Origin: Candidatus Omnitrophota bacterium
Lineage (GTDB): Bacteria > Omnitrophota > Gorgyraeia > Gygaellales > Profunditerraquicolaceae
Length of the DNA: 37,994 nt
Reading direction: 5' to 3'
Assembly: GCA_043802425.1 (NCBI GenBank)
Contig: JAZDLA010000012.1
Span: forward strand, 1-37,994
In this document: piece by piece, positions 3-17,652 of the stretch
How positions within the stretch are numbered: the stretch's first letter is position 1
Layout: the number at the start of each line of letters is the position of its first letter
The notes under the pieces: generated by a model
What the model was told of the DNA's origin: nothing
Seen by the model: the letters and a program-made list of their open reading frames with translations, nothing else
Database searches by the model: none
Translations under genes and position numbers: made by a program

Positions 3-422
3 CCTGATAGAGAGGCCCGGATTATTGAAACCCTTCTTAATGGCGGCGAGCCTGTTACTAAAGACGCGCCTGTTTTAAAGAAATGGTATCAATTTGATAC
101 TTCATTGAGGAATGAGTTGGTTATGGTCAGGGCCAGCCGTAAAAAGATTGAGCCGCAAAAATATGTACGCGGCAGGCACGCGGTAGATGCGCATTTGGCT
201 AATGTCGCTACCCTAGCCGCAAGAGACCCTTTGATCTTAGAGGCCGAGAAGATTCTGGATTTAAACCGCTGGCAGGCAATCGAGGATTTTGTCAAAGGGC
301 ATTATTTCGATTTAGAGGTATTGGTTGCTTATGCATTACAGTTATCCATACTCTTACGTTGGGAAAAAATTTCTACTCAGGATAAAATCGCGGCATTAGA
401 AGAGGTAACCAAGGTAGCCTGA
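3..422 (+). CDS. 5'-truncated CDS, the last gene before ntpA. V-ATPase operon accessory protein, in the slot held by the DUF2764 / subunit-C-like gene in Bacteroidetes/Chlamydia-type operons
   Basis: Frame 3 is open from the window edge to TGA 420-422, so the listed TTG start at 105 is probably internal. The stop lies 1 nt before the ntpA ATG (424). I recognise no diagnostic motif, so the assignment rests on operon position only. Confidence 0.45.
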   Translation, partial: PDREARIIETLLNGGEPVTKDAPVLKKWYQFDTSLRNELVMVRASRKKIEPQKYVRGRHAVDAHLANVATLAARDPLILEAEKILDLNRWQAIEDFVKGHYFDLEVLVAYALQLSILLRWEKISTQDKIAALEEVTKVA

Positions 423-423
423 T

Positions 424-3457: not shown

Positions 3458-3482
3458 GTAGCAGATAGTAGGTAGGGTTAGG

Positions 3483-4097
3483 ATGAAAATTAAATTAACT
3501 AAGGGCGAATTAAAAAGACAGCGTGATGCTTTAAAACAGTACCTGCGCTATCTACCGATGCTGCAGTTGAAAAAACAGCAGTTGCAGATGGAAATTCTTA
3601 ATCAGCACACCTTACTGGCAGAGCGAAGGCGCCTATTGGACAACAAGATGCATAGTGCACAAGCTTGGGCGGGACTCCTCGCTGACCCCGGGATAGATAT
3701 CCATAAGCTCGTTGTAGCAAAAGGGGCGATACGCACAACAAGAAATATTTCCGGGGTGGATATCCCGGTTTTTGAGCGTGTAGAATTTACGCCCGTAGAA
3801 TACGATTTATTCCTTACTCCTTTATGGGTTGATGCAGCGATAGACATAATTCAGCAGCTGATTTCTCTTAAGCAGGAGATTAAAACAATTGAGGAGGGAA
3901 TTATTATTTTAAGACACGAATTGGCAATTACTACGCAACGCGTCAACCTCTTTGAAAAAGTAAAGATCCCCGAAGCCCAAGAGGCGATCCGTAGGGTTAA
4001 GGTTTATATCGGTGACCAGATGGCTAATGCTGTTGGCCGCAGCAAGATTGCCAAGAGAAAAATCCAGGAGTATGTTTTAGAGGGGGTAGCGGTATGA
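3483..4097 (+). CDS. ntpD: V-type ATP synthase subunit D (central stalk)
   Basis: 204 aa. Both termini look coiled-coil (TKGELKRQRDALKQYLRYLP, TTQRVNLFEKVKIPE), as in V-type D subunits. It sits between B and I and overlaps I by 4 nt. Confidence 0.85.
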   Translation: MKIKLTKGELKRQRDALKQYLRYLPMLQLKKQQLQMEILNQHTLLAERRRLLDNKMHSAQAWAGLLADPGIDIHKLVVAKGAIRTTRNISGVDIPVFERVEFTPVEYDLFLTPLWVDAAIDIIQQLISLKQEIKTIEEGIIILRHELAITTQRVNLFEKVKIPEAQEAIRRVKVYIGDQMANAVGRSKIAKRKIQEYVLEGVAV

Positions 4098-5860
4098 TTG
4101 TGCCTATGAAAAAGGCCCAGATCATTATCCAGGCCAAAGACGATAACGCGGCCGTAGCCAAACTGCGCGACTTAGGGTTGCTACATGTGGAGCATCAACA
4201 GGCCCCGGCAGGTAAAGATATTACGGCGATTCATGAAGACCTGGGTTTATTAAATACCGCGCTAAATATCTTATCAGATCAAGAACCTAACCGTAGACCC
4301 TCTTTAGGGCAGGGTAAAGAACTGGCTGACTGGCAGGCTATAGCCAGGCATAGCGTCGATGCTCAAAAGAGAATAGAGCACCTACGGGAATACTCCAGGA
4401 ATTTAGAGAATAAAATTATCGAGTGGCAATTGTGGGGAGATTTTGATCCAGAAGAAATCCAATCGCTAAGCCAGAAGGGCGTATACGTAAGACTCTATCA
4501 GATCCCCGCAAAAGAAATGCATCGGCTGCCCGCGGATGTTGTGGTAAAGAGGATATTTAGCGCCAAAGGGCTAGTTGGCTGTGTGGTTATCTCTAAGGAA
4601 AAGGTGGATATTCATTTTAAGGAGATAACCTTGCCTAAGATGGGGCTTGCCCGGATGCGCGCGCGTTTGGCTGAAGATATGCGGGTAGAAGGGTCTATAA
4701 AAGAAGATCTCAAAAGACACGCAGTTTATCTGGAGGGGTTTTTGAGGATAAAGAGAGGGCTCCAAAAAGAGTTAGAGTTTAAGGAGTCCTTACAGGGTAT
4801 GGGGCAAGTCGCCGACCTCAAATATCTTACAGGTTATATCCCCTTTGATGCGGTTGATCTATTGACAGAGGCAGCGCGCAGCCATCATTGGGGCATTATG
4901 ATAGAGGACCCGTCTGGAGAAGACCGTGTTCCTACCTTATTACGTAATCCGCGCTGGGTTTCTATTATTAATCCTGTGTTTAGATTAATATCAGTGGTAC
5001 CGGGATACCGGGAGCTGGATATCAGCCTTTGGTTTCTGCTCTTTTTTTCCGTATTCTTTGGTATGCTCATCGGTGATGCAGGTTATGGGTTGATCTTCCT
5101 TGGCCTTACCTTTTTTAGCCAGAGGAAATGGGGCAGGAAAACAGAGAATAGTTCAATATTCATGCTCTTTTATATTTTAAGTTCCTCTGCTATTCTTTGG
5201 GGGTTATTGAGCGCTACCTTTTTCGGGCAAGAGTGGATTGCGGGATTTGCCAAACCCATCATCCCTGCGCTTAGAGATGACGCAAGAGTGCAATCCTTCT
5301 GTTTTCTCTTGGGGGCGCTGCACTTAAGCATCGCGCACCTGTGGAGGTTCATATTAAAGTTTCCCTCCTTGTCTGCCTGGGCAGATATAGGTTGGATATC
5401 TATCCTCTGGGCGGCATTCTTTTTGGCAAAGTTTTTGATTCTAGGGCATACCTTTCCGGTTTTTGGAAGAGGGCTTATTATAGCGGGTGCTGGCGCGGTA
5501 TTGTTCTTCTCTAACCCTAATAAAAACCTCTTTAAATGCGTCGGTGGTGGGTTAGGTATCCTTCTACTTAATCTGATGAATAATTTTACCGATGTAGTTT
5601 CTTACGTGCGTCTCTTTGCCGTAGGGCTAGCCACGGTGGCTGTAGCCGATGCATTCAATAAGATGGCTTTAAGTATAGGCTTTAACAGTATTTTTGCCGG
5701 TATCGCCACAGGCCTGATTCTTATTCTAGGGCACAGCTTAAATATCCTGCTGGGTCCGATGTCTGTGCTGGTGCACGGAGTAAGATTAAATGTGCTTGAA
5801 TTCTGCAATCATCTTGATATAAAATGGAGCGGGTTTAATTACCGGCCTTTGAAGAATTAA
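4094..5860 (+). CDS. ntpI: V-type ATP synthase subunit I (a-type stator/channel subunit)
   Basis: 588 aa. A soluble N-terminal half is followed by a multi-TM C-terminal half containing SYVRLFAVGLA (the conserved essential-Arg helix of a/I subunits) and GPMSVLVHGVRLNVLEF. Confidence 0.85.
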   Translation: MIVPMKKAQIIIQAKDDNAAVAKLRDLGLLHVEHQQAPAGKDITAIHEDLGLLNTALNILSDQEPNRRPSLGQGKELADWQAIARHSVDAQKRIEHLREYSRNLENKIIEWQLWGDFDPEEIQSLSQKGVYVRLYQIPAKEMHRLPADVVVKRIFSAKGLVGCVVISKEKVDIHFKEITLPKMGLARMRARLAEDMRVEGSIKEDLKRHAVYLEGFLRIKRGLQKELEFKESLQGMGQVADLKYLTGYIPFDAVDLLTEAARSHHWGIMIEDPSGEDRVPTLLRNPRWVSIINPVFRLISVVPGYRELDISLWFLLFFSVFFGMLIGDAGYGLIFLGLTFFSQRKWGRKTENSSIFMLFYILSSSAILWGLLSATFFGQEWIAGFAKPIIPALRDDARVQSFCFLLGALHLSIAHLWRFILKFPSLSAWADIGWISILWAAFFLAKFLILGHTFPVFGRGLIIAGAGAVLFFSNPNKNLFKCVGGGLGILLLNLMNNFTDVVSYVRLFAVGLATVAVADAFNKMALSIGFNSIFAGIATGLILILGHSLNILLGPMSVLVHGVRLNVLEFCNHLDIKWSGFNYRPLKN

Positions 5861-5888
5861 TAGAGCGGCAATTTAAAAGGAGAGAGAG

Positions 5889-6338
5889 ATGGAACAGACA
5901 ATCTTAGCGCAATTGGGGGATTTAGGGGTAAGCGCGGTTTTAGCTTTATCTGCGGTAGGTTCAGGGTTAGGAGCAGGGGTAGCGGCTATGGCAGCAATTG
6001 GCGCCTGGAAGAAGGCCTTTGCGCAAAACAAGACAGCCACTTTTATGCTCGTGGCTTTTGTGGGCGCGCCATTGACCCAGACTATTTATGGGATGATTCT
6101 GATGAATAAAATGGCCGAGCTCGCCGCAAAGGGCGTCTATCTGTGGAGCGTAGGGATTTTCTGTGGTTTGGCTATAGGTATCTCGGCATTGATGCAGGGC
6201 AAAGCAGCGGCTGTTGCCTGCGATGCCATGGGTGAAACAGGTAAAGGCTTTGGTAATTATATTGTGGTCTTGGGTATCGTGGAAACGGTTGCGCTTTTTG
6301 TGATGGCCTTTGGCCTGGGGCTTTTAGGTAAATTTTAG
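5889..6338 (+). CDS. ntpK: V-type ATP synthase proteolipid subunit K (4-TM c-type), Na+-site motif present
   Basis: 149 aa and Gly/Ala-rich, with 4 predicted helices. Motifs are PLTQTIYG (T63, Q64), LMQGKAA (Q103) and GIVETVALF (E132). A strong SD (AAAGGAGAGAGAG) precedes the ATG. Confidence 0.9.
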   Translation: MEQTILAQLGDLGVSAVLALSAVGSGLGAGVAAMAAIGAWKKAFAQNKTATFMLVAFVGAPLTQTIYGMILMNKMAELAAKGVYLWSVGIFCGLAIGISALMQGKAAAVACDAMGETGKGFGNYIVVLGIVETVALFVMAFGLGLLGKF

Positions 6339-6351
6339 TTCTGTAATATTT

Positions 6352-6428
6352 GGGCGCTTAGCTCAGCTGGTTAGAGCGGTTGACTTACATTCAACAGGTC
6401 GGGGGTTCAAGTCCTCTAGCGCCCACCA
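6352..6428 (+). tRNA. tRNA-Val (anticodon TAC), CCA encoded
   Basis: Hand-folded cloverleaf. Acceptor GGGCGCT/AGCGCCC, D arm GCTC..GAGC, anticodon stem GTTGA/TCAAC with loop CTTACAT, T loop TTCAAGT, discriminator A plus CCA. 77 nt. Confidence 0.92.
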
Positions 6429-6497: not shown

Positions 6498-6576
6498 GGG
6501 CCCGTGGTGCAGCCTGGTTTAGCACGTCAGATTGTCGATCTGAAGACCGCGAGTTCAAATCTCGTCGGGCCCGCCA
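6498..6576 (+). tRNA. tRNA-Asp (anticodon GTC), CCA encoded
   Basis: Hand-folded cloverleaf. Acceptor GGGCCCG/CGGGCCC, D arm GTGC..GCAC, anticodon stem TCAGA/TCTGA with loop TTGTCGA, T arm GCGAG-TTCAAAT-CTCGT, discriminator G plus CCA. 79 nt. Confidence 0.92.
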
Positions 6577-6726: not shown

Positions 6727-7599
6727 ATGGATGAAAAAGTGCCCTTTATAAGTTTTAAAAAAATATTAATTTTGGGGGGGATGATAGTAGTATTAATCCA
6801 GCCTATGGGCCCCAGAACACCTGGGGAATGCTCGGATAACCTTGCACTAAAGAATGAAGAATTAATCCCCGAACACTGGAAGGATAAATACGGTATTTCT
6901 TTTAAGGAAGTAGCCAAGCTAAATGGGCAAGTTTTTTTTATCGATGCAAGAGAGCCGGAAGAGTTCGCTTACGAACACATAAAAGGAGCCAAGCATATTA
7001 GGGCCAGAGATATTGACTCCATTGAAACAATAAAGAAGGCATTTAATTTAAGCGATAAGGAATTCAAGCAGTCATTTTTTATTATCTATTGTCACACCGG
7101 CACCAGGGCCGCGGAAATACCTGCAAAAGTAGAAGTCAATAATATCAAATTCTTGCTTAAGGGGGGGATGTTCTTACGCTTGGAAGAAAATCAACATTTG
7201 ATATATAGGGATCTCGAACAGACTATATTTGATGTAGATTTAGTAAATGAAGGTTTTTCTATATCTATAGACAGGGCGATAGAATTATTAAGGAAAAGAG
7301 AGGCCCTATTTATTGACGGACGATTATACAAAAAAAATCCTCTACCCTTTGCCTATGACTTCAGGATAGGCCAACTGTCTACCCGGGAGTATGAACAAAG
7401 ATTAACTAATCTCTTGAATTTTATTGATAAAAAGATTATTTATATCGCAGATAGTTATGCGGATGTTTATTACGCTAAACTTTTGGTACAAAGGCTAAGA
7501 AAACAATACGCTTTTAAGATTAAGAATTATTTTGTGTTATTCAAAAAAAGCGATCTATTTTATCGAAAATTGAAAGATTTGAATTTGTTGGTTGAATAA
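6727..7599 (+). CDS. Membrane-anchored tandem rhodanese-domain protein (paralogue 1)
   Basis: 290 aa with an N-terminal KK plus one hydrophobic helix. Domain 1 has FFIDAREPEEFAYEHIKGAKHI, IIYCHTGTRAAE (CX4R active-site loop) and LKGG. Domain 2 (LFIDGR...IIYIADSYADVYYAKLL) has Asp at the Cys position, as in inactive rhodanese modules. There is no SD before ATG 6727, so the start is uncertain. Confidence 0.75.
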   Translation: MDEKVPFISFKKILILGGMIVVLIQPMGPRTPGECSDNLALKNEELIPEHWKDKYGISFKEVAKLNGQVFFIDAREPEEFAYEHIKGAKHIRARDIDSIETIKKAFNLSDKEFKQSFFIIYCHTGTRAAEIPAKVEVNNIKFLLKGGMFLRLEENQHLIYRDLEQTIFDVDLVNEGFSISIDRAIELLRKREALFIDGRLYKKNPLPFAYDFRIGQLSTREYEQRLTNLLNFIDKKIIYIADSYADVYYAKLLVQRLRKQYAFKIKNYFVLFKKSDLFYRKLKDLNLLVE

Positions 7600-7621
7600 T
7601 ATATAATATGGGAAATATACT
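7592..7621 (+). promoter_or_regulatory. Candidate sigma70-like promoter for the beta-helix genes (weak call)
   Basis: TTGAAT-N18-TATACT lies about 90 nt upstream of ATG 7711. The region is very AT-rich, so chance matches are likely. Confidence 0.25.
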
Positions 7622-7710
7622 TTCTACTTCTCCGAAAGCATGATAATATGTAACCGTGGATTAAATAATTAATAAACAAATCGTAACGGTAATAAGAAAG
7701 GAGTCGGGAT

Positions 7711-8015
7711 ATGAGAAAAAAGTTTTTTTTAGCTATCTGCGGCATAAGCGTTATAGGGTTGGCTTTTGTCAACAATCAAGCCTGTTTAGGCGAAGATAAG
7801 GCCGAAACAGTGATATCTGCCGGGAAACATGAGTTCCCGCAAGGGATTATAGTCAAAAAGGGCGAGGCTCTAATCGTGAACCCAGGGGCCCATTTGAAGA
7901 TGGGTAAAAACACCAGAATCATCGTAGAAGGAAAAATTATTGCCAAAGGCACCAAAGACCGCCCGATTATATTTTCCGGAAGCGATGGTTATTGGAGGGG
8001 GATTAAGATTACGGG
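7711..8015 (+). repeat. 305-nt near-identical 5' module, copy 1 (codons 1-102 of beta-helix gene 1)
   Basis: My hand alignment to 9300-9604 gives 297/305 identical positions and no indels. Similarity starts exactly at the ATG and collapses after ACGGG. Confidence 0.9.
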
Positions 8016-9303
8016 TCAAGAAAAAATTCCTGCTTCTGATTCATTCTGGCAATGGTTAAAAGAAGGAGACGAACAAAAAGAGCATTTTTTTCTTTCTAAA
8101 ATTCAACAGGGGAATATTTTTAAATATTGTAAATTTGAAAATATTTCTACTGAAGAGCAGAAATTACGTTGTACTAATAAACGGATTGGCGCTTTAGAAA
8201 TCTACAATAGCTCGGTTCAGGTGAGTAATTCTGAATTTAATGACATTCTGCACATTGCAGGGGTATTAACCCAAGAATCTTATGTATTAGTAGCGAACAA
8301 CTCTTTTATTACCAACTTTATTCATAAAAGTGTAAATATTACCCGTAATTGTATAGCGGTAATCTACCAAAACGAGATTATTCAACAGCGGGTTAAAAAC
8401 CAGACCTGCGCTGATGGAATCTGGGTAATCGGTTCTACCGTTCTTGTTATGTCAAATAACCTTGAAGGCATTGGCGATGACGCTGTGGATATCAAGGGTT
8501 CTCGTTCTATAATTATTAATAATAAAATAGATACTGTTTGGGATGAAGGCATAGATTTGGAGGGAGGGATAAATCTTGTCATTCGAAACAGCATAAATAA
8601 TAGTAATGAGTCCGGAATTATGATCACGCAAAGTAAAAATACGGCTTTAGTAGGGAACACGATTAGGAGATCAAACATTGATGGTGGGTTGACTTTAAGA
8701 AACGGCGCCGTAGTTACAGCAACAAAAACTACCATACAAGATAGTAATACGGGCGTACTCTTCAAACAAATCATCCCTCTGGGTATATCGGAAGCGGACT
8801 TTATAAAAACTAAAGAACAGCTACTTGTTACGCCCCCGGAAGAGATTGCTCCTGGAATGTGTGATTCTCTCACCCCAGCTGACCTTATTAACAAACTAGA
8901 GTCAGCTTATACCAAAGAAGGTAATTATTATTATTATAAGTTTTCTACTTTTGACGGCTTAGTGGAGGAGGTCTTCAAGACTATAAAATTTGAACCAGAA
9001 GCTGTCAATACTGATAGGATAAAGACTTTGCCTCTTTATGCAAAACAAGAAAATCGTTTATATCTGGTAGATTCCAGGCTGGAGAATAATAGAAAAGATT
9101 TTTTAATTTTTAATAATTTCTTATTAAATATAAATAACACTGAATTTACTGATGAAGAAAGTAAAACGCAGATTCAAAAAAAATGCACAGCTGATTTCAA
9201 GCCCCAATTTATAGATGACCTTGGGGTTTCCTCTGTTATTTCCAACTCTAACAGAATACTACAAGTTTTAAATCGACAAGTTTTAAATATTAACGAAGAA
9301 TGA
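7711..9303 (+). CDS. Secreted right-handed parallel beta-helix repeat protein (paralogue 1)
   Basis: 530 aa. SD AAGGAG lies 7 nt upstream. The signal peptide is MRKKFFLAICGISVIGLAFVNNQA. Stacked rungs of about 22-25 aa are visible (NNLEGIGDDAVDIKGSRSIIINNKIDTVWDEGIDLEGGINLVIRNSINNSNESGIMITQSKNTALVGNTIRRSN). The K/E/N-rich C-terminal ~170 aa has no repeats. Confidence 0.75.
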   Translation: MRKKFFLAICGISVIGLAFVNNQACLGEDKAETVISAGKHEFPQGIIVKKGEALIVNPGAHLKMGKNTRIIVEGKIIAKGTKDRPIIFSGSDGYWRGIKITGQEKIPASDSFWQWLKEGDEQKEHFFLSKIQQGNIFKYCKFENISTEEQKLRCTNKRIGALEIYNSSVQVSNSEFNDILHIAGVLTQESYVLVANNSFITNFIHKSVNITRNCIAVIYQNEIIQQRVKNQTCADGIWVIGSTVLVMSNNLEGIGDDAVDIKGSRSIIINNKIDTVWDEGIDLEGGINLVIRNSINNSNESGIMITQSKNTALVGNTIRRSNIDGGLTLRNGAVVTATKTTIQDSNTGVLFKQIIPLGISEADFIKTKEQLLVTPPEEIAPGMCDSLTPADLINKLESAYTKEGNYYYYKFSTFDGLVEEVFKTIKFEPEAVNTDRIKTLPLYAKQENRLYLVDSRLENNRKDFLIFNNFLLNINNTEFTDEESKTQIQKKCTADFKPQFIDDLGVSSVISNSNRILQVLNRQVLNINEE

Positions 9304-9604
9304 GAAAAAAGTTTTTTTTAGCTATCTACGGCATAAGCGTTATAGGGTTGGCTTTTGTAAACAATCAAGCCTGTTTAGGCGAAGATAAGGCCGAAACAGT
9401 GATATCTGCCGGGAAACATGAGTTCCCGCAAGGGATTATAGTGAAGAAGGGTGAGGCTCTAATCGTAAACCCAGGGGCTCATTTGAAGATGGGCAAAAAC
9501 ACCAGAATCATCGTAGAAGGAAAAATTATTGCCAAAGGCACCAAAGACCGCCCGATTATATTTTCCGGAAGCGATGGTTATTGGAGGGGGATTAAGATTA
9601 CGGG
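9300..9604 (+). repeat. 305-nt near-identical 5' module, copy 2
   Basis: See copy 1. There are 8 mismatches, and 7 of them are synonymous. Confidence 0.9.
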
Positions 9605-11000
9605 GACAAACAGCCCGCCCGATATAAATAGATATAAAGAATTATTCGAACGTAACGAATTTGAGCGCTCTGATTTTATTTCTTCCTTAAGGAGAGGGAA
9701 TATTTTTTTATACTGTGAGTTTGAAAATCTTGCTACAGAATCTAGGCAAAGGGATAAATATAATAGAGAAACGGGAGTAATTGAAGTTAAAAATAGCTCT
9801 TTAATCGTCTCGCATTCTAAGTTCAATAAAGATATTTTGCATATAGGTTGTATTTTATCGGATGAATCAGTAGCATTAATCAGTAATAATCACGTCAGCT
9901 CTTTGATGATCATGAAAGCGGTCTTTGCCAGAGAGAGCGTGATTATCGTTCATCATAACTCGATAGCCCCTAAGCGCTACGAGTATCAAACCTGGCCGGA
10001 TGGCATTGTTAGTGATAATGGCATGGCAATTATTTATGGTAATAACTTTGATGGGACTGGTGACGATGCGATTGATTGCGGTAATTCCTTATGCTTTATT
10101 GCTAACAACAATATCAATAGACCTTTTGATGACGGCATAGATATTGATTGCGGCGCTAAAGCATATATAGTTGGCAATAACATCTCCCAACCGTACGATG
10201 AAGGCATTATAATCTCCGATCAATCCTTCGCTCTATTAATAGATAACCAGATTAATGGCGTTAAAAGCACAAATGTTACTAGCGGCCCCTTGATAAATAC
10301 TGCCAATGCTGCTCTTACATTAAGGAGCGGGGGGAAGGCGTATTGTAAAAATTTAACTATTACAGATAGTGATAGAGGAATTTATTTGAAACAAGAATTA
10401 CCTTTAGTTCTTAACCAGCAAGAGTTTAATTCAATAAAACAGGCTATTTTGGATTTGTCTGAGCAAGAGATATCTCTTACTGCTGGTTATTCTTCCAAAC
10501 AGGAGTTGTTAAAGATATTAGATAATTCCTATGAAGATTACCGGGGGTTAAAAATTTTAGGTGACCCGCAAGAAGGTAAAGACAAAGGCTTTATTTATCT
10601 TATTCGACCGCTGAAGAAAATTTTTAAACTTATTGGACACAATCACATTCAGAGCAAGATAGACTTGGATCAGCTACTTAAAATTCCCGATGAAAAAATT
10701 AAACAAAAGTTAGCAAGGTATATTAATTTTCTTTACCTAGACAATAGCATTATTAGCAATTCAGCAATACCATTGATTAGAGAAAAACCCTATTATTTAA
10801 AGATACAAGGTGTAAAAATAGGACAAGATAACATAGACTTAGAAGACGACCGAACTCATCAATTATCGGCTAATGAATTAACTAATTTTATTCAGACTAC
10901 TAAGGCCATCGATGGAGAATTCGGCAAAATTAATAAGAAAATAGGCTATGTCGAAAAATTAATTAAAAAAATGGATACCCATGATCCCCAAGCTCATTAA
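9300..11000 (+). CDS. Secreted right-handed parallel beta-helix repeat protein (paralogue 2)
   Basis: 566 aa. The ATG overlaps the upstream stop (ATGA). Residues 1-102 are identical to paralogue 1 except C10Y. The remainder is homologous but strongly diverged (GNNFDGTGDDAIDCGNSLCFIANNNINRPFDDGIDIDCGAKAYIVGNNISQPYDEGIIISDQS). Confidence 0.75.
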   Translation: MRKKFFLAIYGISVIGLAFVNNQACLGEDKAETVISAGKHEFPQGIIVKKGEALIVNPGAHLKMGKNTRIIVEGKIIAKGTKDRPIIFSGSDGYWRGIKITGTNSPPDINRYKELFERNEFERSDFISSLRRGNIFLYCEFENLATESRQRDKYNRETGVIEVKNSSLIVSHSKFNKDILHIGCILSDESVALISNNHVSSLMIMKAVFARESVIIVHHNSIAPKRYEYQTWPDGIVSDNGMAIIYGNNFDGTGDDAIDCGNSLCFIANNNINRPFDDGIDIDCGAKAYIVGNNISQPYDEGIIISDQSFALLIDNQINGVKSTNVTSGPLINTANAALTLRSGGKAYCKNLTITDSDRGIYLKQELPLVLNQQEFNSIKQAILDLSEQEISLTAGYSSKQELLKILDNSYEDYRGLKILGDPQEGKDKGFIYLIRPLKKIFKLIGHNHIQSKIDLDQLLKIPDEKIKQKLARYINFLYLDNSIISNSAIPLIREKPYYLKIQGVKIGQDNIDLEDDRTHQLSANELTNFIQTTKAIDGEFGKINKKIGYVEKLIKKMDTHDPQAH

Positions 11001-11988
11001 ACAGATTAAACAAAGCAGGAAAATTGTCATATTTATTATTCTACAAAATATTATTCTTATTGCAGTTTTAGGGGTATTTCTTTACTTTAGATTTTATAAA
11101 TCTATTTATGATGACCAATATTTATTCCCCCAAGGGCACTCCCCGAAAACTCAACTTATTAGCTTAGAAGAAGTTAAGAAATTTAATCCGGATTATATAG
11201 TTCAAGAGGAAGACCTGTTAGAGGATAAGGAAGGACACCGAACAGTAACAAATGAAAAATACGGTATTACTGGTGAGCAAATTGAACAAAAGATCAAAAA
11301 GGGAGGAAAGGTCTATTTCATTGATGTGCGAGAGATAGAAGAATATAAAGTCGGTCATATCAATGGCGCTATACATTTAAGAGGAATGGACTTGACCATC
11401 GATAAAATAAAAGAAGGATTTGGGCTAAATCAGGATCAGCTTGACAATAGTTTATTTATTTTGGTTTGCCACGACGGGGGACGCGGGCTTGATTATGTCC
11501 GGCAAATTAATAAACCAAATATTAAATATCTGATAAAGGGGATAGAATACGGGGATGTTGAGAATATTTCCTTAGAGATGACCGGTCCTAAAATTGCCGA
11601 TTTTGAGTTATTTGGTAGAAAGTATCAAACTAAATATCAGATGAAAGCCGAGGATGCAATCAAGATGATCAATTCAGGGGAAGATGTATTAATCATCGAC
11701 GGAAGGGCTCAAATAGAATACCGGAGAAAACATATTAAAGGCTCTGTCTACCTTAAGTGCGGTAGGATGACTACCACTGAATATGAGGAGGCATTAGAAC
11801 AAGTGTTAAAGAGAAAAGGTGCGCACTTAATCGCTCTGCCTGATAGATATGGCGAACTTTTCTATGCGAACTTATTATTTTATCGCCTTGAAAACTATTA
11901 TGGATTTGATGATAGCAAATTCCATATTGTATTTCACCAGTTTGAAAAATTCAACCAAAACCCCGATCTCGAGACTATAAAAGATTAA
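10981..11988 (+). CDS. Membrane-anchored tandem rhodanese-domain protein (paralogue 2)
   Basis: 335 aa. The K/R-rich N terminus is followed by a TM helix (IVIFIILQNIILIAVLGVFLYF). Domain 1 has YFIDVREIEEYKVGHINGAIHL and ILVCHDGGRGLD (CX4R). Domain 2 has LIIDGRAQIEYRRKHIKGSVYL and LIALPDRYGELFYANLL (Asp at the Cys position). It overlaps the upstream gene by 20 nt. Confidence 0.75.
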   Translation: MIPKLIKQIKQSRKIVIFIILQNIILIAVLGVFLYFRFYKSIYDDQYLFPQGHSPKTQLISLEEVKKFNPDYIVQEEDLLEDKEGHRTVTNEKYGITGEQIEQKIKKGGKVYFIDVREIEEYKVGHINGAIHLRGMDLTIDKIKEGFGLNQDQLDNSLFILVCHDGGRGLDYVRQINKPNIKYLIKGIEYGDVENISLEMTGPKIADFELFGRKYQTKYQMKAEDAIKMINSGEDVLIIDGRAQIEYRRKHIKGSVYLKCGRMTTTEYEEALEQVLKRKGAHLIALPDRYGELFYANLLFYRLENYYGFDDSKFHIVFHQFEKFNQNPDLETIKD

Positions 11989-12026
11989 GGGTTGCACCTT
12001 TCTTCGAAATAAAATACAAATAAAAT

Positions 12027-12365
12027 ATGCTGATATTAAGAGGGATTTTAATATATGCTTTGATGCTTGTGGCTCCTGCCGCAGCCTGGGCGATTTTACC
12101 TCCCAGCTTCTTTGTTCAAGGGCTAACTTCAATTTCTGCAATAATTGCCGGAGCGATTGGGGTAACAATCGGCTATTTTTTTATCTTTTGGAGAATTTTC
12201 AAGATAATTGCCAGTAAGTATAAAAGGGTTATTTTATTTCTGTTAATACAAAATATCGTTATTGCTGCCTTGTTATGTATAATTTTTTACTGGGGTTTCT
12301 ATAAACCTTTGTATAAAACTTCCTATTTATATCAGACTCAAAATTCTAACAGCCAACCCGAATAG
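12027..12365 (+). CDS. Small ~3-TM membrane protein. Its C-terminal helix is paralogous to the anchor of rhodanese paralogue 2
   Basis: 112 aa and hydrophobic throughout. KRVILFLLIQNIVIAALLCIIFYWGFYKPLYKTSYLY aligns with RKIVIFIILQNIILIAVLGVFLYFRFYKSIYDDQYLF of the preceding gene. Confidence 0.5.
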   Translation: MLILRGILIYALMLVAPAAAWAILPPSFFVQGLTSISAIIAGAIGVTIGYFFIFWRIFKIIASKYKRVILFLLIQNIVIAALLCIIFYWGFYKPLYKTSYLYQTQNSNSQPE

Positions 12366-12374
12366 CGCCCTGGG

Positions 12375-14261
12375 ATGAATAATAAAATACCTTCTAAGAT
12401 AAAAAATCTCATTTGGCTCAAGGAAAAAGGCTTTAAAATAAAGCCCTTCTTTGTCATTGATGAGCTAATAATAAAGAGCATCGAACTAGAGATTGAAAAG
12501 ATAATTCATTTTTTCCAAGCCCAAGAAGTAGAAAGCGTAATTATCAGAAGCGCAAGCTGCCGTGAAGATTCAGACGATAAATCCCAGGCAGGTTTTTTTG
12601 AAAGCTCAGGAGAAATTTTATTAAAAAATTTAACTGCCCAAAGAGTGCTAAGCCTATGGCTGGTTAATAAGAAAAAGGCGAAGCAAATAAAATGTTCTGA
12701 GCTATATCTTTTTATTCAACAATATATTCAAGCTGATTACTGGGGGGTTATTTTCAGCCAGCAGATTTATGATCAAGACCGAGCAAGTTTAATGCTATCT
12801 ACCCTCCCCGGTGCTATTACCGGAGGCAAGAACGCGGAGAAAAATGTTACCTATAATAAAAAAAATAATCAGTGGATAAATCAGGATATTTTATCGGGAA
12901 GCTTAGAAAAAAAATTGTCCGGTATTATTTTTACCGCGGAGGAAAAATTCCCGGAAGGAGCTGATATTGAGCTGGGGATTAAGGAAAACGATGTAGAGTT
13001 ATTCCAAATTAGGCCGATTAACAGGAATAAAGATGAAAAAATCCTGCTGTTTGAGAGGCAAAGGTTAAAGGATGTCTTTGGGGTTAATTTTGAAAAACAA
13101 TCCTGGGTAAAGAATGCCTTTACCCAAGCACTAGGGGACTTAACGCCCCTATCTTTAAGTTTTTATAATTATTTGTTAAATTCAGAGGAAGTCTACTGCC
13201 TGTTAAGAAAAGCCGGGTTTATCGATAAAAGAATGGACACAGATATTAATTATAGGATTTTAGAAAATATCGGTAACCGCACCTTTTATAATACCTGCCA
13301 GGAAAAACTTCTTTTTCCTAAACAAACCAGCCGATGGCCTAACTTTAAGAGAATAATCCATATATCTATTCAGGAAGATATTCTGCGAGAAGAAGGATTG
13401 AAATTATCAAATATTGAGTTATCAATTAATAATTGCTTTGCATGGCTGTTCCTATCCGGAATTTATCTGCAAATATTTATAGAAAAGGAAAAGCAAAAAT
13501 ATGATAGTGGTAGTTTTTCGGAAAAACTCAGGAATACAGAAATTATTTGCGGCGCCTCGAGGCCCCATTTCCAAGAGGCCAGTAGCATAAGTATAGATGA
13601 ATTTATTAAGAAATATTATTATTGGGCAGATTATCCTTATGAATTAGCGAATATCAGAATTTCGGAACAGGATAAGGATGAGATAGCTAAAATATATGCT
13701 TATTTCAATAGGAAGGATAAAAAGGCAGATGTGAATAACTGTTTAGGGAGAAAAGTCCAATTTTGGCTTAAACAGAGAATTCTCCGGAAAGAAAAATTTC
13801 TTAAATCGTTATTCATGGAGCGGGGGCAATTAATACGAACCTACAAAAAAGATATTTTTAAAGCAACGAACTGGGAGGGAATAGTAAAAAAGGGCGAAGA
13901 ACCATTATTGCAAAACGGCTTCTTAGGGGACGATAACGAAAAGCTATCTAATGCATTTTCGGCTATCTCGGGGGAAAACTACCCTTATTCTAAACGAGGG
14001 GCCAGGGAACTTATTATAATGCCTGGAACGATTGATTTGCAAAATGTTGCTTATCTAACCGAAGAGGACGACATCAAGCGGTATATTGGTAGATATATTG
14101 CTATTTATTCTTTCCCTAACAAATGGATCCCATTTATTCCCAGATTAAAAGGTATTATCCTAAAGGAGGGTAATGAGCTTTCCCATATGGCGATCGCTTG
14201 CCGTGAGTATAGAATTCCCTGCAGGGTTGGCTTTTCTTCCCAGTTTAATAATAATTCTTAG
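12375..14261 (+). CDS. PEP-utilising-enzyme family dikinase/phosphotransferase. It has a PPDK_N-type ATP-grasp and a C-terminal phosphohistidine swivel domain but no PEP/pyruvate barrel
   Basis: 628 aa. The N-terminal signature is VIIRSASCREDSDDKSQAGFFES. The extreme C terminus reads GIILKEGNELSHMAIACREYRIPCRVG (mobile His domain). I do not recognise the ~350-aa middle region. No signal peptide. Confidence 0.75.
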   Translation: MNNKIPSKIKNLIWLKEKGFKIKPFFVIDELIIKSIELEIEKIIHFFQAQEVESVIIRSASCREDSDDKSQAGFFESSGEILLKNLTAQRVLSLWLVNKKKAKQIKCSELYLFIQQYIQADYWGVIFSQQIYDQDRASLMLSTLPGAITGGKNAEKNVTYNKKNNQWINQDILSGSLEKKLSGIIFTAEEKFPEGADIELGIKENDVELFQIRPINRNKDEKILLFERQRLKDVFGVNFEKQSWVKNAFTQALGDLTPLSLSFYNYLLNSEEVYCLLRKAGFIDKRMDTDINYRILENIGNRTFYNTCQEKLLFPKQTSRWPNFKRIIHISIQEDILREEGLKLSNIELSINNCFAWLFLSGIYLQIFIEKEKQKYDSGSFSEKLRNTEIICGASRPHFQEASSISIDEFIKKYYYWADYPYELANIRISEQDKDEIAKIYAYFNRKDKKADVNNCLGRKVQFWLKQRILRKEKFLKSLFMERGQLIRTYKKDIFKATNWEGIVKKGEEPLLQNGFLGDDNEKLSNAFSAISGENYPYSKRGARELIIMPGTIDLQNVAYLTEEDDIKRYIGRYIAIYSFPNKWIPFIPRLKGIILKEGNELSHMAIACREYRIPCRVGFSSQFNNNS

Positions 14262-14320: not shown

Positions 14321-15466
14321 CTATTCAATCTTGTATTTTATGGTGCAATAATCGTTTTTACTGCTTCCCACCACAATAATGTCACCCTTTTTGTCCAATG
14401 CCACCCCGTAGGCTTTATCATCGCCCTTGCTGTCGTAGGTCGCTGATGCCAATTCAGTTAAATCGGGGCCATATATTATGGTGTGGTAATCATTATCGGA
14501 GCCGTTATGAATATAGCCTGTAATAATAATATTGTTATTCTCATCTATTGCTATTCCTTCGGCTCTATCGTTACTCCCGCTATCATATGTCACGGACGCC
14601 AGCTCATTTAAATCGCGATCGTATTTTATAGTGCGGTAATCATAATTTGAGCCAGTATAAACATACCCGGTAACAATAATATTATTGTTTGTATCTACCG
14701 CTACTCCTCGACATTGGTCGTCATCCCCGCTATCATATTTTACAGATTTCATTATACTTAAATCACGATAACTATACTTTACTATGCGGTAATCTCCGTT
14801 TTTTTCATTATTAGAGGTTCCGGCAACAATAATATTATTATCCTTATCGATTGCTACCCCGTAAGCATAGTCATGATTGCCGCTGTCATATGTCGCTGAC
14901 GCCGGCTTAGCCAAATTAGAATCGTATCGTATTAGATAGTAATCCCAGGTAGACTTATCATCTCTTTTTTTCCCTACATCAATAATATTGTTATTTTTAT
15001 CCACAGCTAATGCCCTTGCTCGATCATCAACATAATATGTGCTCTCGTATGTCGCAGAATTAATTGCTCTTAGATCAGAATCATATTTCACGATATAACA
15101 AAGCCAGCTGTAATAATACCACATAAAACCCGCAACAATAATATTATCATCTTTATCCACTACCATTTTATAAGCTTTTGCATCTATATATTCGCTTTCG
15201 CCTTTATATACCATAGAATCAATTATACTTAAATCGGAGTCGTATTTTATGGTTAGGGCATCAAGATCCGATCCATTATTACTGTACCCTGTAACAATAA
15301 TATTATTCTTTCCATCTACTGCTACTGCATAAGCAGCATCATCGCTGCCGCCGTCATAATACTTACAATTTTCTGTCTTAAGCATTTTTGCTTCTAAAAT
15401 TTTTAAAGGGATAACCAGAAAAGTTAAAACCAGTATCCCTATTAATTTGAACTTATTTTCCCGCAT
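14321..15466 (-). CDS. Secreted 7-repeat beta-propeller-type protein (SBBP / delta-60-like repeats)
   Basis: 381 aa with an N-terminal signal peptide. Seven units of about 47-50 aa follow the pattern YDSG..DD.A.GVA.D..NNIIVTGY...GS..DY.TIKYD.DL. Confidence 0.65.
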   Translation of the reverse strand: MRENKFKLIGILVLTFLVIPLKILEAKMLKTENCKYYDGGSDDAAYAVAVDGKNNIIVTGYSNNGSDLDALTIKYDSDLSIIDSMVYKGESEYIDAKAYKMVVDKDDNIIVAGFMWYYYSWLCYIVKYDSDLRAINSATYESTYYVDDRARALAVDKNNNIIDVGKKRDDKSTWDYYLIRYDSNLAKPASATYDSGNHDYAYGVAIDKDNNIIVAGTSNNEKNGDYRIVKYSYRDLSIMKSVKYDSGDDDQCRGVAVDTNNNIIVTGYVYTGSNYDYRTIKYDRDLNELASVTYDSGSNDRAEGIAIDENNNIIITGYIHNGSDNDYHTIIYGPDLTELASATYDSKGDDKAYGVALDKKGDIIVVGSSKNDYCTIKYKIE

Positions 15467-15569: not shown

Positions 15570-16655
15570 TTAATTTCTGGTTATACGCTGAATCTTCTGT
15601 AGGTAATGGAGTCTGCTAGCGCCATTTATAACTTCGTTAAGACCTAATTTTTTAGCGTTTACTTTTAATCTCCAGACTATTTCTTCTTTAGGAGTTACTT
15701 CTATAATCTGCAACGGCGTCAGAATTAAAGTGTTACCATTTGGAAGTCTGTCAGCATCACAGGTCAGGTTTTCTTGTTTCCAGTTAGGGGGATCGAATGA
15801 CCAGGTTATTTCCCCTGTTTTAGAATTGATTTGCGCAACAGGATAAAAAAATACTGATTCATCTGGAGTTGGCTGAGATGCGTAATTTTTAAGTAGCGGA
15901 TATTGAGAGATTACTAAAATATCGCCACTGTCAAGTATTTCTGGGTCGTGTGGGTAATAGATTATGCCTTTGCCGATAATTCTTATGACATCACCCTGCT
16001 TAGTTACTTCTGCAAGGCAATTGAAGTTTCGTAAACAAATCAGGGTATTCCCATTAGATAAGCGCTGAACTGCGCAAGTATGCGTAAAACCCCCCACTAA
16101 ATGATCAGGATTGTAAGTAAATTTATCCAGATGCTTACTTACGCTCCACTTCCAAACTACATGCCCGTATTTATCTACTTCTGTAACCTGCGCATCCGTT
16201 ATTTTATCTTCCATTCCAAAGACATAGAGCGTGTTACCATTGGGCAGTCGATCTGCATCATGACTTATTTTACTAGTCTTGTAGGACCAGATAATATCCC
16301 CTTCTTTGTTAACTTCATAAACTCCACGAAGTGCACATACAAAAAGTGTATTGCCGTTAGAGAGCCTTTCTACATCTATGCCACGATAATATGGTTTCAA
16401 ATTGTCCGGTAATCTATACTCCCAGACCACTCGGCCCTCCATGTCTACTTCCACAATCCGCGGATTATGCATGTCAGTCGTATCAGTAAAAAGCGTTGTC
16501 CCGTTGCAAGCTTTCTCCTTCTTCCATATATCTACAGTCCATCTATCACTATTTCCCTGCGGTTTTTTACCTTGTTCTGCACTAACTGTATATACAAAAC
16601 ACAAATGAAAAAAGAATATAGATATAGTAAGAATATAAGTTAGCTTATTGTTCAT
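15570..16655 (-). CDS. Secreted beta-propeller protein, arylsulfotransferase (ASST)-like
   Basis: 361 aa with signal peptide ILTISIFFFHLCFVYTVSA. There are four copies of (D/Q/E)RL(S/P)NGNTL spaced about 45-80 aa apart, three of them embedded in blade-like motifs (HDADRLPNGNTLYVFG, CAVQRLSNGNTLICL, CDADRLPNGNTLILT). The family name comes from pattern memory only. Confidence 0.5.
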   Translation of the reverse strand: MNNKLTYILTISIFFFHLCFVYTVSAEQGKKPQGNSDRWTVDIWKKEKACNGTTLFTDTTDMHNPRIVEVDMEGRVVWEYRLPDNLKPYYRGIDVERLSNGNTLFVCALRGVYEVNKEGDIIWSYKTSKISHDADRLPNGNTLYVFGMEDKITDAQVTEVDKYGHVVWKWSVSKHLDKFTYNPDHLVGGFTHTCAVQRLSNGNTLICLRNFNCLAEVTKQGDVIRIIGKGIIYYPHDPEILDSGDILVISQYPLLKNYASQPTPDESVFFYPVAQINSKTGEITWSFDPPNWKQENLTCDADRLPNGNTLILTPLQIIEVTPKEEIVWRLKVNAKKLGLNEVINGASRLHYLQKIQRITRN

Positions 16656-16721
16656 AATTTTGGGTCTTCATAAACGATATTTCTATTTTATAAAATTTAT
16701 TTTGAACTACTGCGGAGAAAA

Positions 16722-16832
16722 TTATAGATATAATTTTTTGGGGGGCCTTATATCTATAATAAAAGCAACATTGTTCTCTTGAAGCTTATTGAGAGAGTCC
16801 CCTAGCTTAAGTCCCTCATAGCCGATTGCCAT
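16722..16832 (-). pseudogene. Probable N-terminal fragment of a DUF488-like gene (36 codons, then stop)
   Basis: The - strand reads MAIGYEGLKLGDSLNKLQENNVAFIIDIRPPKKLYL*. The IGYEG...L....N..(I/V)IDxR..P pattern matches my memory of DUF488 N termini. The frame ends just after a C6A6 run (plus-strand T6G6, 16734-16745), and no frame continues the protein. Confidence 0.35.
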
Positions 16833-17172
16833 TAAAATTTTTATTTTACTTATATATTCGTTATTTTATCTTATAATTTTAATTAGTCAAGGCCTAGTTT
16901 TACTGTGCACTAGCAAGGTAGAAATGTCCTGTTTTTAGCAATTTTAATCTCTAAAACAGCTGCCAGCCGCCTCTTAGAGATTGTAGGGCCGTAACCTTAC
17001 TTGCCCCAATAAGTAAGTTTCTTTTGGCGATAAAGCCCCACACCGATATTTTTTCGGTAAAAAGTTGTTTAACCCTGTCAAAATTAATCATTCTGTTATC
17101 GGTATCTACTAAGAAGCCCCGGCCTATTTATTGGCTAGGGGGATCTTATAAAACGTTAGAACCCTACGGAAT

Positions 17173-17220
17173 GGGCCCCGCTTATAAATCTTACTCCGTT
17201 TAGCACTCGCGGAGCTTTTG
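17173..17220 (+). repeat. Decayed copy of the tRNA-Asp 3' tip plus its downstream hairpin (att-like, copy A)
   Basis: GGGCCCCGCTTATAAATCTTACTCCGTTTAGCACTCGCGGAGCTTTTG aligns with 17581-17628 (about 42 of 47 positions, one 1-nt indel). Confidence 0.7.
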
Positions 17221-17523
17221 CTTTTATGGGTATTTATCACATTAGTGGCTTTTTAGCCTCTATACGACGGACACTATTTGGACACCAGGGCATAACACAC
17301 AAGCTTAGAAAAGACCGGTCCCGTTTCTCAAATGTGTCCTAGCCAAGGAAGAAGGCGGTGCCACCACGAGGACATTGTGATAACGATACGCTTAAAGGGA
17401 TTGAGTTTGAACTTACCACAGATTTGAAGAGGCGGTGATAAATTGTGAAATCGGAAATACCAAGCCCGAAGATAGGAATATAGAGAGGATAAAAGAATTG
17501 ATTAAGGCGCGGAAAAAAACTAC

Positions 17524-17550
17524 TTAGCATTCCTCTTGTCGTGGTATAAT
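17524..17550 (+). promoter_or_regulatory. Candidate extended -10 promoter facing the radical SAM gene (weak call)
   Basis: TTAGCA-N15-(TG)G-TATAAT, that is TGGTATAAT at 17542-17550, about 100 nt upstream of ATG 17653. The spacer is short and nothing beyond the motif supports it. Confidence 0.3.
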
Positions 17551-17552
17551 TG

Positions 17553-17588
17553 CTTAAGATCGCGAGTTCAAAATCTCGTCGGGCCCGC
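17553..17588 (+). pseudogene. tRNA-Asp 3' fragment (T arm plus acceptor 3' strand); direct repeat of 6548-6574
   Basis: CGCGAGTTCAAAATCTCGTCGGGCCCGC matches tRNA-Asp CGCGAGTTCAAATCTCGTCGGGCCCGC, 27 nt with one extra A. Similarity extends 8 nt further 5' (CTTAAGAT vs CTGAAGAC). No 5' half is present, so it cannot fold as a tRNA. Confidence 0.85.
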
Positions 17589-17599
17589 TTATAAATCCT

Positions 17600-17628
17600 G
17601 CTCGGTTTAGCACTCGCGGAGCTTTTTT
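17600..17628 (+). terminator. Intrinsic-terminator-like hairpin plus T6 behind the tRNA fragment (copy B of the repeat)
   Basis: GCTCGGT-ttagcactc-GCGGAGC (one mismatch) followed by TTTTTTATTTTT. Confidence 0.4.
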
Positions 17629-17652
17629 ATTTTTACAAACATTGCGCTTAAA

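Follow-up and report, generated by a model that had tools for sequence, protein, structure and literature searches.

What does a bacterium do with a gene cassette that encodes two tandem rhodaneses, two secreted beta-helix proteins, a small membrane protein, and a dikinase-like enzyme (DIK)? The question is raised by six genes in a 37,994-nucleotide (nt) stretch of DNA from a Candidatus Omnitrophota bacterium (GCA_043802425.1, contig JAZDLA010000012.1), referred to below as the window. An original prediction, made from the sequence by a model, described the six genes as a probable transcription unit. It proposed an envelope-located sulfur-transfer or surface/glycan-modifying system paired with a cytoplasmic phosphotransferase, a tentative frame that we consider the right one. 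We found that the anchored rhodanese and the cytoplasmic dikinase of the window are best read as one trans-membrane unit, carried on an island at a tRNA-Asp gene. The six open reading frames (ORFs) were confirmed at the predicted positions and spacing, all on the + strand with gaps of +111, -4, -20, +38, and +9 nt (lengths below in amino acids, aa):

6727..7599, + strand: Rhd1, anchored or secreted tandem rhodanese, 290 aa (PF00581 E 1.5e-11; hydropathy)
7711..9303, + strand: BHa, secreted right-handed beta-helix protein with CASH/NosD-like repeats, 530 aa (Beta_helix E 2e-11)
9300..11000, + strand: BHb, paralogue of BHa, 566 aa (Beta_helix E 6.6e-9; repeat D1)
10981..11988, + strand: Rhd2, short-form membrane-anchored tandem rhodanese, 335 aa (PF00581 E 2.6e-18, 2 stretches)
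12027..12365, + strand: N-module protein, 112 aa (alignment with the N-termini of long-form rhodaneses)
12375..14261, + strand: DIK, dikinase-like enzyme, 628 aa (Pfam, NCBIfam, AlphaFold2 (AF2), Foldseek)

The sequences IIRSASCREDSDDKSQAGFFES and GNELSHMAIACREYRIPCRVG, quoted earlier as motifs, are both present, as are CHTGTR and CHDGGR. Hydropathy and charge analysis gives each module protein a hydrophobic N-terminal signal or anchor, the dikinase being the one exception. It had been claimed that no described pathway combines these parts, and searches of Pfam, NCBIfam, PADLOC, the PDB, and the literature gave none; the gene set fits no characterised pathway, and a literature search of limited reach found no paper on this gene combination. 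PADLOC models run against all eight island proteins gave zero matches at E <= 0.01, and a reading as anti-phage defence, left without any such match, was dropped. Gene content was compared over 26 fetched loci (numbered L below), which were dereplicated to 12 lineages.

The dikinase-like enzyme

The last gene had been predicted to encode a PPDK_N ATP-grasp domain and a terminal swivel domain with no TIM barrel, and Pfam bears this out. PPDK_N (PF01326) matches residues 12-170 with 30 bits (cut-off 27), PEP-utilizers (PF00391) matches residues 582-622 with 34 bits, and there is no Pfam match to a TIM-barrel domain. The AF2 model (predicted local distance difference test (pLDDT) 83, predicted TM-score (pTM) 0.76) is divided into an ATP-grasp domain (~1-218), an all-alpha region (~219-500, pLDDT ~85-95), and a small alpha/beta swivel domain that carries His604 (~530-628). 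The best Foldseek matches were whole-length alignments to rifampin phosphotransferase (RPH; 5fbs/5hv1/5hv3) at E ~1e-15 and 12-14% identity. These alignments span ~800-880 columns with low TM-scores (0.28-0.38), as expected because the enzyme is multi-domain and mobile. For the ATP-grasp domain, Foldseek also returned the ATP-binding domain of RPH (5hv6) and ATP-grasp structures of Ddl, and the swivel domain aligns to RPH residues 758-842; further matches were ATP-grasp ligases, PPDK, and HpeI (9goj, E 9.5e-6). According to the model, DIK is a three-domain RPH-like enzyme, and the middle of ~350 aa, which had been left unplaced, is the predicted counterpart of the all-helical substrate-binding domain of RPH. 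An architecture of the RPH or glucan-water-dikinase type had been suggested; the RPH part stands, whereas glucan-water dikinases are generally known to differ in domain order.

The residues R58/S59/A60, E64/D65, D197/E199, Q211/R213, and H604 (LSH604) are invariant in 14 dikinase homologues, and DIK is shown by its residues to be a putatively intact catalyst. Since it has no transmembrane (TM) segment, the enzyme is taken to be cytoplasmic. Rifampin is an unlikely substrate, because the identity to RPH is so low. When 1.84 billion representatives were searched with a dikinase profile built from 14 homologues, around twelve of them and some additional fragments scored at least 444 bits, and the next scores were at most 166 bits, a cliff of more than 270 bits, which makes the DIK clade discrete. 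NCBIfam gave sub-threshold matches only, to PRK05849 ('hypothetical protein', E 1.3e-15) and PigC (E 1.5e-11), and an exact-match look-up of the DIK sequence returned no record.

The small-molecule dikinases, of which RPH-type enzymes are a part, form a wide family (PMC4844700, PMC12167813). DIK shares with RPH (RPH-Lm; 5FBS, 5HV1) the order of ATP-grasp, all-helical substrate domain, and C-terminal phosphohistidine swivel domain, the lack of a TIM barrel, and the conserved catalytic His and ATP-grasp motifs. RPH is larger (~865 aa), however; the ATP-grasp domain of DIK is shorter and its helical domain much smaller, and DIK, unlike RPH, invariably has extracytoplasmic rhodaneses as gene neighbours or, in a sister family, as fusion partners. 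ATP-grasp/swivel-His chemistry and an RPH-like helical domain are likewise found in the two-component phenol dikinases HpeHI, CreHI, and PpsAB (PMC12167813) and in PigC/HapC-type ligases. HpeHI-type and PigC-type enzymes differ from DIK in being soluble members of aromatic or prodiginine pathways without membrane, rhodanese, or beta-helix partners, and the NCBIfam scores of DIK for these families are far below the cut-offs.

The anchored rhodaneses

The CX4R loops pointed out earlier in domain 1, CHTGTR in Rhd1 and CHDGGR in Rhd2, are present and conserved in homologues. A loop of the form C-[HY]-x-G-x-R is kept in domain 1 of all 11 aligned homologues (11/11), and C163/H164/G166/R168 are invariant in 15 rhodanese homologues. 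As far as residues can show it, the catalytic centres of the anchored tandem rhodaneses are intact. Rhodanese-fold phosphatases and arsenate reductases of the CX5R type (Cdc25/Acr2, with a loop of seven residues) were considered and ruled out, the loop being CX4R in every member. Domain 2 has no Cys in either window rhodanese (LPDRYGE, IADSYAD). It had been claimed that Asp takes its place; the absence of Cys stands, but Asp lies ~2 residues past the Cys-equivalent position in the strand/helix register of the model, a register that is approximate. The profile alignment of domain 1 to domain 2 covered the N-terminal halves only, and the domain-2 loop register is approximate there as well.

The AF2 model of Rhd2 (pLDDT 86) shows a TM helix (2-43), a flexible linker, and two rhodanese domains. 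Its best Foldseek matches are tandem sulfurtransferases, with Cdc25B ranked 50th (E 2.4e-3); a PDB sequence search with Rhd2 gave no significant match. Two rhodanese domains, one with the Cys loop and one Cys-less, are also found in the tandem sulfurtransferases of F. tularensis (6MXV) and P. aeruginosa (1YT8) and in SseA and CysA. The classical arrangement (bovine rhodanese, RhdA) has an inactive N-terminal domain and places the catalytic domain C-terminally, whereas in the window rhodaneses the order is reversed, with the Cys loop in the first domain. Proteins of this family are anchored in the membrane via a conserved N-module with an LPPxFFVQG motif. The charges flanking the Rhd2 anchor are +5 on the N side and 0 on the C side, and therefore an N-in, C-out orientation is predicted, with only about 14 residues in the cytoplasm. 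Based on the positive-inside rule, the signal peptides of long-form relatives, and fusions in which a rhodanese stands at the place of the YidC periplasmic domain, we predict an extracytoplasmic location of the rhodanese domains, in agreement with the earlier topology. PspE-type rhodaneses are extracytoplasmic.

Rhd1-type genes always stand before beta-helix genes. Orthologues of Rhd1 occupy the same position in L016 (67% identity) and in L013, L020, L023, and L025 (38-42%). The 112-aa protein consists of a signal peptide, the motif ILPPSFFVQGL ((I/F)LPPxFFVQG among relatives), TM1, a basic loop, and TM2. Its sequence can be aligned to the N-terminal ends of long-form rhodaneses in L001, L003, L013, L018, L020, and L023, and a stand-alone copy in L021 is 66% identical and in the same position. 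Judged by these alignments, the small TM protein is the detached N-terminal membrane module of long-form Rhd2-type rhodaneses. Each part of the module is from a known superfamily, while the DIK clade is without a characterised member and the rhodaneses have a reversed domain order and a novel N-module.

Fusion proteins

The next tier of the profile search consisted of seven representatives of a sister family, 1,279-1,422 aa in length (P0172, P0180, P0213, P0217, P0233, P0250, P0292). Their order is N-module, tandem rhodanese, 60KD_IMP/YidC-like domain with four to five TM segments, PPDK_N, helical region, and swivel domain. The N-module again has a signal peptide, an I-P/V-S/P-P motif, TM1, a basic loop, and TM2. 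The tandem rhodanese is collinear with Rhd2 across both domains, occupies the place of the YidC periplasmic P1 domain, and has a C-x-S-G-N-R loop in five of the seven representatives. One fusion protein, on a 1.1-Mb contig, has the JGI annotation YidC/Oxa1 insertase. The 60KD_IMP domain (the YidC/Oxa1 five-TM core) is absent from all window proteins according to Pfam. As the YidC core runs from the outer to the inner side of the membrane, the fusion independently puts the rhodanese outside and the dikinase inside. The predicted domain order of these proteins shows rhodanese and dikinase as parts of one membrane-spanning unit, and it is in this sense that we read the separate proteins of the window.

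An outer domain, a TM bundle, and an inner enzyme are also the layout of a receptor-enzyme. The outer rhodanese might sense persulfide or redox state and control the dikinase by way of the membrane segments, or it might act as a YidC-P1-like chaperone or oxidoreductase for exported clients such as the beta-helix proteins. The YidC-type position of the rhodanese and the insertase annotation would agree with this, and the loss of the Cys in two of seven fusion representatives would be tolerable in a binding role. The parts are separate in the window, though, where the ~14 cytoplasmic residues of Rhd2 would make a poor signalling path, and the full CX4R loop is strictly kept in the unfused family, which favours catalysis. 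With no downstream target of the dikinase evident, a receptor or export role seems quite unlikely.

Conservation and related loci

Among 5.8 billion clustered proteins there are 17 relatives of DIK and 15 of the Rhd2 type. The dikinase gene was found in one of 185,579 species-representative genomes, a Candidatus Falkowbacteria metagenome-assembled genome; other named carriers are 'bacterium CG2_30_37_16' and a Candidatus Parcubacteria bacterium. Apart from the Omnitrophota island, all carriers with names belong to the candidate phyla radiation (CPR)/Patescibacteria. In one homologue (P0016, from L018/L019) the deposited translation shows Trp wherever all homologues have Gly; re-translation with code 25 restores the conserved Gly and therefore indicates a carrier in which UGA encodes Gly (Gracilibacteria/Absconditabacteria-type). 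The gene content of the 12 lineages was as follows:

11/12 lineages: Rhd2-type gene at most two genes upstream of the dikinase gene (exception L011/L026)
8/12 lineages: any beta-helix gene
6/12 lineages: Rhd1-BH(-BH) block
6/12 lineages: membrane-anchored 'sulfatase-family' genes
3/12 lineages: PMT(GT-C)-GT2(ArnC-like)-LAB_N directly downstream, overlapping the dikinase stop codon
2/12 lineages: beta-propeller plus arylsulfate sulfotransferase (ASST)-like pair

The stop and start codons of the Rhd2-type and dikinase genes often overlap, and Rhd2 is regarded as the core partner of the dikinase. The order Rhd-BH-BH-Rhd-dikinase is found again in six of the dereplicated lineages. The entire window island, both propeller genes included, is reproduced in L021 at 59-75% protein identity. 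The order is Rhd1-BHa-BHb-RhdL-dikinase in L013 and Rhd1-BHa-BHb-RhdL-RhdS-dikinase in L023 and L025, where FISUMP surface proteins and a GT4 glycosyltransferase are nearby, while L004, L007, and L018 have the rhodanese-dikinase pair alone. In L004 an integrase gene lies two genes from the module. The tightly spaced unit of rhodanese, beta-helix, and dikinase genes is thus conserved in many genomes, as the original prediction implied, and chance juxtaposition is excluded because the gene order recurs in many unrelated contigs. DIK represents a discrete, previously unnamed clade of the RPH-like dikinase superfamily, coupled by synteny and fusions to equally rare anchored rhodaneses.

These neighbourhoods bear on a simpler explanation, that DIK is an RPH-type kinase inactivating an antibiotic or other xenobiotic and merely shares an island with functionally unrelated genes. 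In its favour, no structure matches DIK better than RPH does, a mobile island carries the gene, and RPH homologues are widespread, some acting on antibiotics (PMC4844700). The same neighbours, however, are kept across lineages whose dikinases are merely 36-47% identical, and they are fused to the enzyme in the sister family. Given in addition the 12-14% identity to RPH and the lack of any NCBIfam resistance-family match for DIK, we regard this explanation as highly improbable.

Two of the related loci differ in structure from the window. On the contig of L016 (1-10715; GCA_030630345.1, DAOVNG010000080.1), an N-module fragment and the dikinase come first, and Rhd1 and the beginning of BHa come last. 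The module there is apparently a circular permutation, as might result from a circular element of ~15-16 kb or from a break in the assembly where the beta-helix 5' ends repeat. In L016 (4319-5320) and L021 (10533-11534) a HydE/PylB/BioB-like radical S-adenosylmethionine (SAM) gene lies just past the ASST-like gene and scores 205 bits to HydE, below the cut-off. At the corresponding position the window holds ~900 nt of non-coding DNA without a detectable remnant.

The 'sulfatase' genes that adjoin the module in L001, L003, L011, L013, L020, L023, and L026 have T-x-P-x-H in place of C/S-x-P-x-R. In an alignment to solved sulfatases, Thr stands at the formylglycine Cys/Ser position and His at the Arg position, and therefore these proteins are predicted to be Thr-nucleophile enzymes of the alkaline-phosphatase superfamily and not canonical sulfatases. 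They cannot form formylglycine and, on the motif, are likely to be phosphoryl- rather than sulfuryl-transfer enzymes. Automatic annotation would label them sulfatases. A sulfate-ester theme that would join sulfatase, ASST, and rhodanese was considered and rejected, given the Thr/His substitution and an ASST match that is partial. Two candidate fusions were also set aside: P0017, with the N-half of a dikinase and a sulfatase-family C-half, is a probable truncation or assembly chimera, and P0154 is likewise a chimeric fragment.

The module could instead serve to capture sulfur or selenium. The outer rhodaneses would take sulfane sulfur (from thiosulfate or polysulfide) or selenium, the element would pass through the membrane, and the dikinase would trap it as thio- or selenophosphate, with a stoichiometry that would match selenide, water dikinase (ATP + HX- + H2O -> AMP + Pi + X-phosphate), an enzyme of unrelated fold. 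Such dikinase chemistry fits the EC 2.7.9 reaction type. The catalytic Cys of the CX4R loop is kept throughout the rhodanese family, the closest structural matches are true sulfurtransferases and not Cdc25, the core pair occurs alone, as expected of a self-contained unit, and the HydE/BioB-like gene adjoins the sister islands. An association of CPR rhodaneses with sulfur-rich groundwater has been described (PMC10811913). Several observations speak against capture, however: the aromatic-rich helical substrate domain of ~280 aa serves organic molecules in relatives, the 'sulfatase' partners are not sulfatases, sulfide would need no transporter, and the Cys loop is missing in two fusion representatives. 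Since the beta-helix, GT-C, and GT2 partners would also go unexplained, we consider sulfur or selenium capture rather unlikely.

Secreted beta-helix and propeller proteins

Both beta-helix proteins have Beta_helix Pfam matches and N-terminal hydrophobic segments, consistent with the signal peptides claimed earlier. The C-terminal region of BHa is helical, and a PDB sequence search with BHa gave no match. A NosD (PF05048) match is borderline in BHa (23.9 bits; cut-off 23.6) and absent in BHb. NosD of a NosDFY system was rejected, given this single borderline match and an island without ABC genes (NosF ATPase, NosY permease). The BHa orthogroup includes proteins of L021 (69% identity) and of L013 and L023 (30-32%). 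By sequence comparison BHa and BHb are ancient paralogues, with orthogroups that can both be followed through the lineages. Their first 102 residues are 99% identical and the remainder 27%, and the first 300 nt of the genes (7711-8010 vs 9300-9599) are 97% identical. The 5' ends are the product of a recent gene conversion covering the signal peptide and the first ~80 mature residues. A similar homogenisation of the N-terminal part is seen in L021 (85%), but not in L013 or L023.

Two further secreted proteins are encoded on the opposite strand of the island:

14321..15466, - strand: secreted beta-propeller with delta-60/SBBP repeats (TIGR02608 77.5 bits in NCBIfam; Pfam SBBP)
15570..16655, - strand: secreted beta-propeller with a partial ASST match (PF05935 54 bits)

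The first of these genes is convergent with the dikinase gene and part of the island. Five to six internal direct repeats of ~150 nt, 61-72% identical, at 14353-15358 correspond to its delta-60/SBBP blades. For the second, PF05935 scores above its cut-off and covers only profile positions 14-150 of 374; PDB sequence matches were to designed propellers only, with no solved ASST among them. Each propeller gene has an orthologue in L016 (59%) and another in L021; for the delta-60/SBBP gene the L016 orthologue has the same position.

Beta-helix folds are typical of polysaccharide-degrading enzymes. The secreted proteins might accordingly belong to an episymbiont or predator that strips a host polymer with beta-helix depolymerases and phosphodiesterases and traps the imported fragment with the dikinase. 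The island is mobile, its carriers in Omnitrophota and CPR are ultra-small and host-dependent (PMC10066038), and trapping by phosphorylation has been discussed as the rationale of HpeHI (PMC12167813). However, no lyase or hydrolase catalytic motif was identified in the beta-helix proteins, and no importer is conserved in the module. The CPR dikinase gene shows translational coupling to GT-C/GT2/LAB_N genes, which are biosynthetic, and a soluble catabolic kinase needs no membrane tether of the kind seen in the fusions. Scavenging is for these reasons judged unlikely.

Proposed function of the module

Our preferred reading, plausible and held tentatively, is that the module forms an enzyme unit that spans the membrane, acts on the cell envelope, and is horizontally mobile. 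In the cytoplasm, the RPH-type dikinase would convert ATP to AMP and Pi, loading His604 on the swivel domain, and the phosphate would then move from His604 to a non-pyruvate acceptor in the helical middle domain. Candidate acceptors at the inner leaflet are a lipid, a polyprenyl-linked intermediate, or a lipid-linked glycan intermediate; a membrane-associated acceptor is the most likely, because relatives tether the dikinase covalently to a membrane domain. Outside, the anchored tandem rhodaneses and the two secreted beta-helix proteins would process this acceptor, or what is made from it, on a glycoconjugate of the cell surface. The class of acceptor, the order of the steps, and the joining of sulfur transfer and phosphorylation in one pathway are what we infer. 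The proposal fits the GT-C/GT2/LAB_N and Thr-type transferase partners of the CPR loci.

Several points weigh against an envelope-modifying unit. No glycosyltransferase was found in the window island, and no flippase or transporter is encoded there. The rhodanese-dikinase pair stands alone in L004, L007, and L018, so its core function needs no glycan genes. We know of no sulfurtransferase role in a phospho-glycan pathway, and the canonical Cys loop is missing from two of the seven fusion representatives. Promoter and terminator scans of the window were at chance level; co-transcription of the six genes is argued from their spacing only.

Pairs of an extracytoplasmic Thr-nucleophile transferase and a recycling lipid kinase at the cytoplasmic face are known from LtaS-DgkB and EptA/MCR-3-DgkA, sometimes on mobile elements. 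The dikinase similarly adjoins Thr-type enzymes in 6/12 lineages. Unlike these pairs, the window island lacks any gene of the alkaline-phosphatase type; the fold of DIK is unrelated to that of their kinases, and the rhodanese has no counterpart in them. Another lead is Cj1418, the L-glutamine kinase of the Campylobacter capsule O-methyl-phosphoramidate pathway. It is an RPH/PEPS-like ATP-grasp and swivel-His kinase making a phosphorylated precursor for surface-polysaccharide decoration, and PRK05849, the best NCBIfam match of DIK, may be its family. DIK scores 56 bits against PRK05849 (an unnamed family of ~789 aa) vs a cut-off of 501, and the cytidylyltransferase and hydrolase genes of the Cj1418 pathway are not present here.

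A more specific scheme, without described precedent, is a trans-membrane relay in which phosphorylation is coupled to the translocation of sulfur or of a thio-/phospho-group. The substrate would be activated at the inner face in a His~P-dependent step and would then pass across the membrane. The persulfide of the outer rhodanese would attack it there, giving a thio-substituted or thiophosphorylated envelope component. The YidC-like domain of the sister family could serve as a scaffold, and the system would be exchanged among ultra-small, host-dependent bacteria. We regard such a relay as very unlikely.

If rhodanese and dikinase do form one trans-membrane unit, they would represent a new link of cytoplasmic ATP use to sulfur/phosphoryl chemistry at the surface. 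CPR/Patescibacteria are ultra-small, largely uncultured, and host-dependent, and surface biology is central to their attachment and to living off other cells. Specialists would be surprised by how strictly rhodanese and dikinase are coupled, by the YidC-type fusion, and by a module that CPR and Omnitrophota share on a tRNA island. The system is tractable, being a six-gene cassette with a soluble enzyme that has a clear catalytic His.

Island and integration site

The boundaries of the island are marked by the following features:

6352-6428: tRNA-Val, upstream of the island (ARAGORN, Rfam)
6498..6576, + strand: tRNA-Asp (GTC) (ARAGORN, Rfam, repeat families D16/D18, alignment)
16656..17552, no strand: non-coding island tail, ~900 nt (no ORF of at least 100 aa)
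17553..17588, + strand: attR-like copy of the tRNA-Asp 3'-end repeat, CTTAAGATCGCGAGTTCAAAATCTCGTCGGGCCCGC (D16/D18, alignment, blastn)

The left copy of the direct repeat (attL-like) is the 3' end of tRNA-Asp at 6540-6574. The two copies differ by 2 mismatches and 1 indel over ~35 nt in the alignment, and blastn gives 91.7% over 36 nt. The bracketed ~11 kb contain the six module genes and the two convergent propeller genes, with the coding part extending to 16655. GC content is 36.3% inside and 46.9% and 41.9% in the flanks, and the GC profile falls from ~45% to ~36% between roughly 6.7 and 17 kb. Because a tRNA 3'-end direct repeat lies at the far boundary and the base composition deviates, we conclude that the module is a foreign, horizontally transferred tRNA-Asp island. 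It shows the module moving between CPR and Omnitrophota lineages. Rfam detected the two tRNAs and nothing else in the window, and no tRNA genes were found beside the sister islands.

No integrase was detected at 16656-17652, where there is no ORF of at least 100 aa and no tblastn match, and neither tblastn nor blastx found integrase or radical-SAM remnants in the island tail. Lacking an integrase gene at its end, the island is presumably fixed or decayed. A 46-nt stretch occurs twice ~400 nt apart, at 17174-17219 and, directly past the attR-like repeat, at 17581-17626 (repeat D8, 91% identical). Its upstream copy (17174-17219) is preceded by GGGCCCCGC and represents a partial, older copy of the att flank within the tail. 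The duplicated flank suggests that this tRNA-Asp site took up a second insertion, older or in tandem, which later decayed.

The genes flanking the island encode a V-type ATPase, HypF-C/HypD/HypE, a B12-radical SAM enzyme, a PabB/TrpE-like protein, and a PilZ protein. Among the top 120 HypD matches, all relatives with a name are Candidatus Omnitrophota or Omnitrophica, which makes the host an Omnitrophota bacterium. The HypF-like ORF (25439-26560) has only 373 aa and matches the C-terminal Kae1-like domains alone (HypF_C, HypF_C_2); the regions that HypF normally has at its N terminus (acylphosphatase, zinc finger, YrdC) did not turn up in the adjoining ORFs. The V-type ATPase operon (105-6338), with DUF2764-like, A, B, D, I, and K/c subunits, stops right before both tRNA genes, which serve the island as its site of integration.

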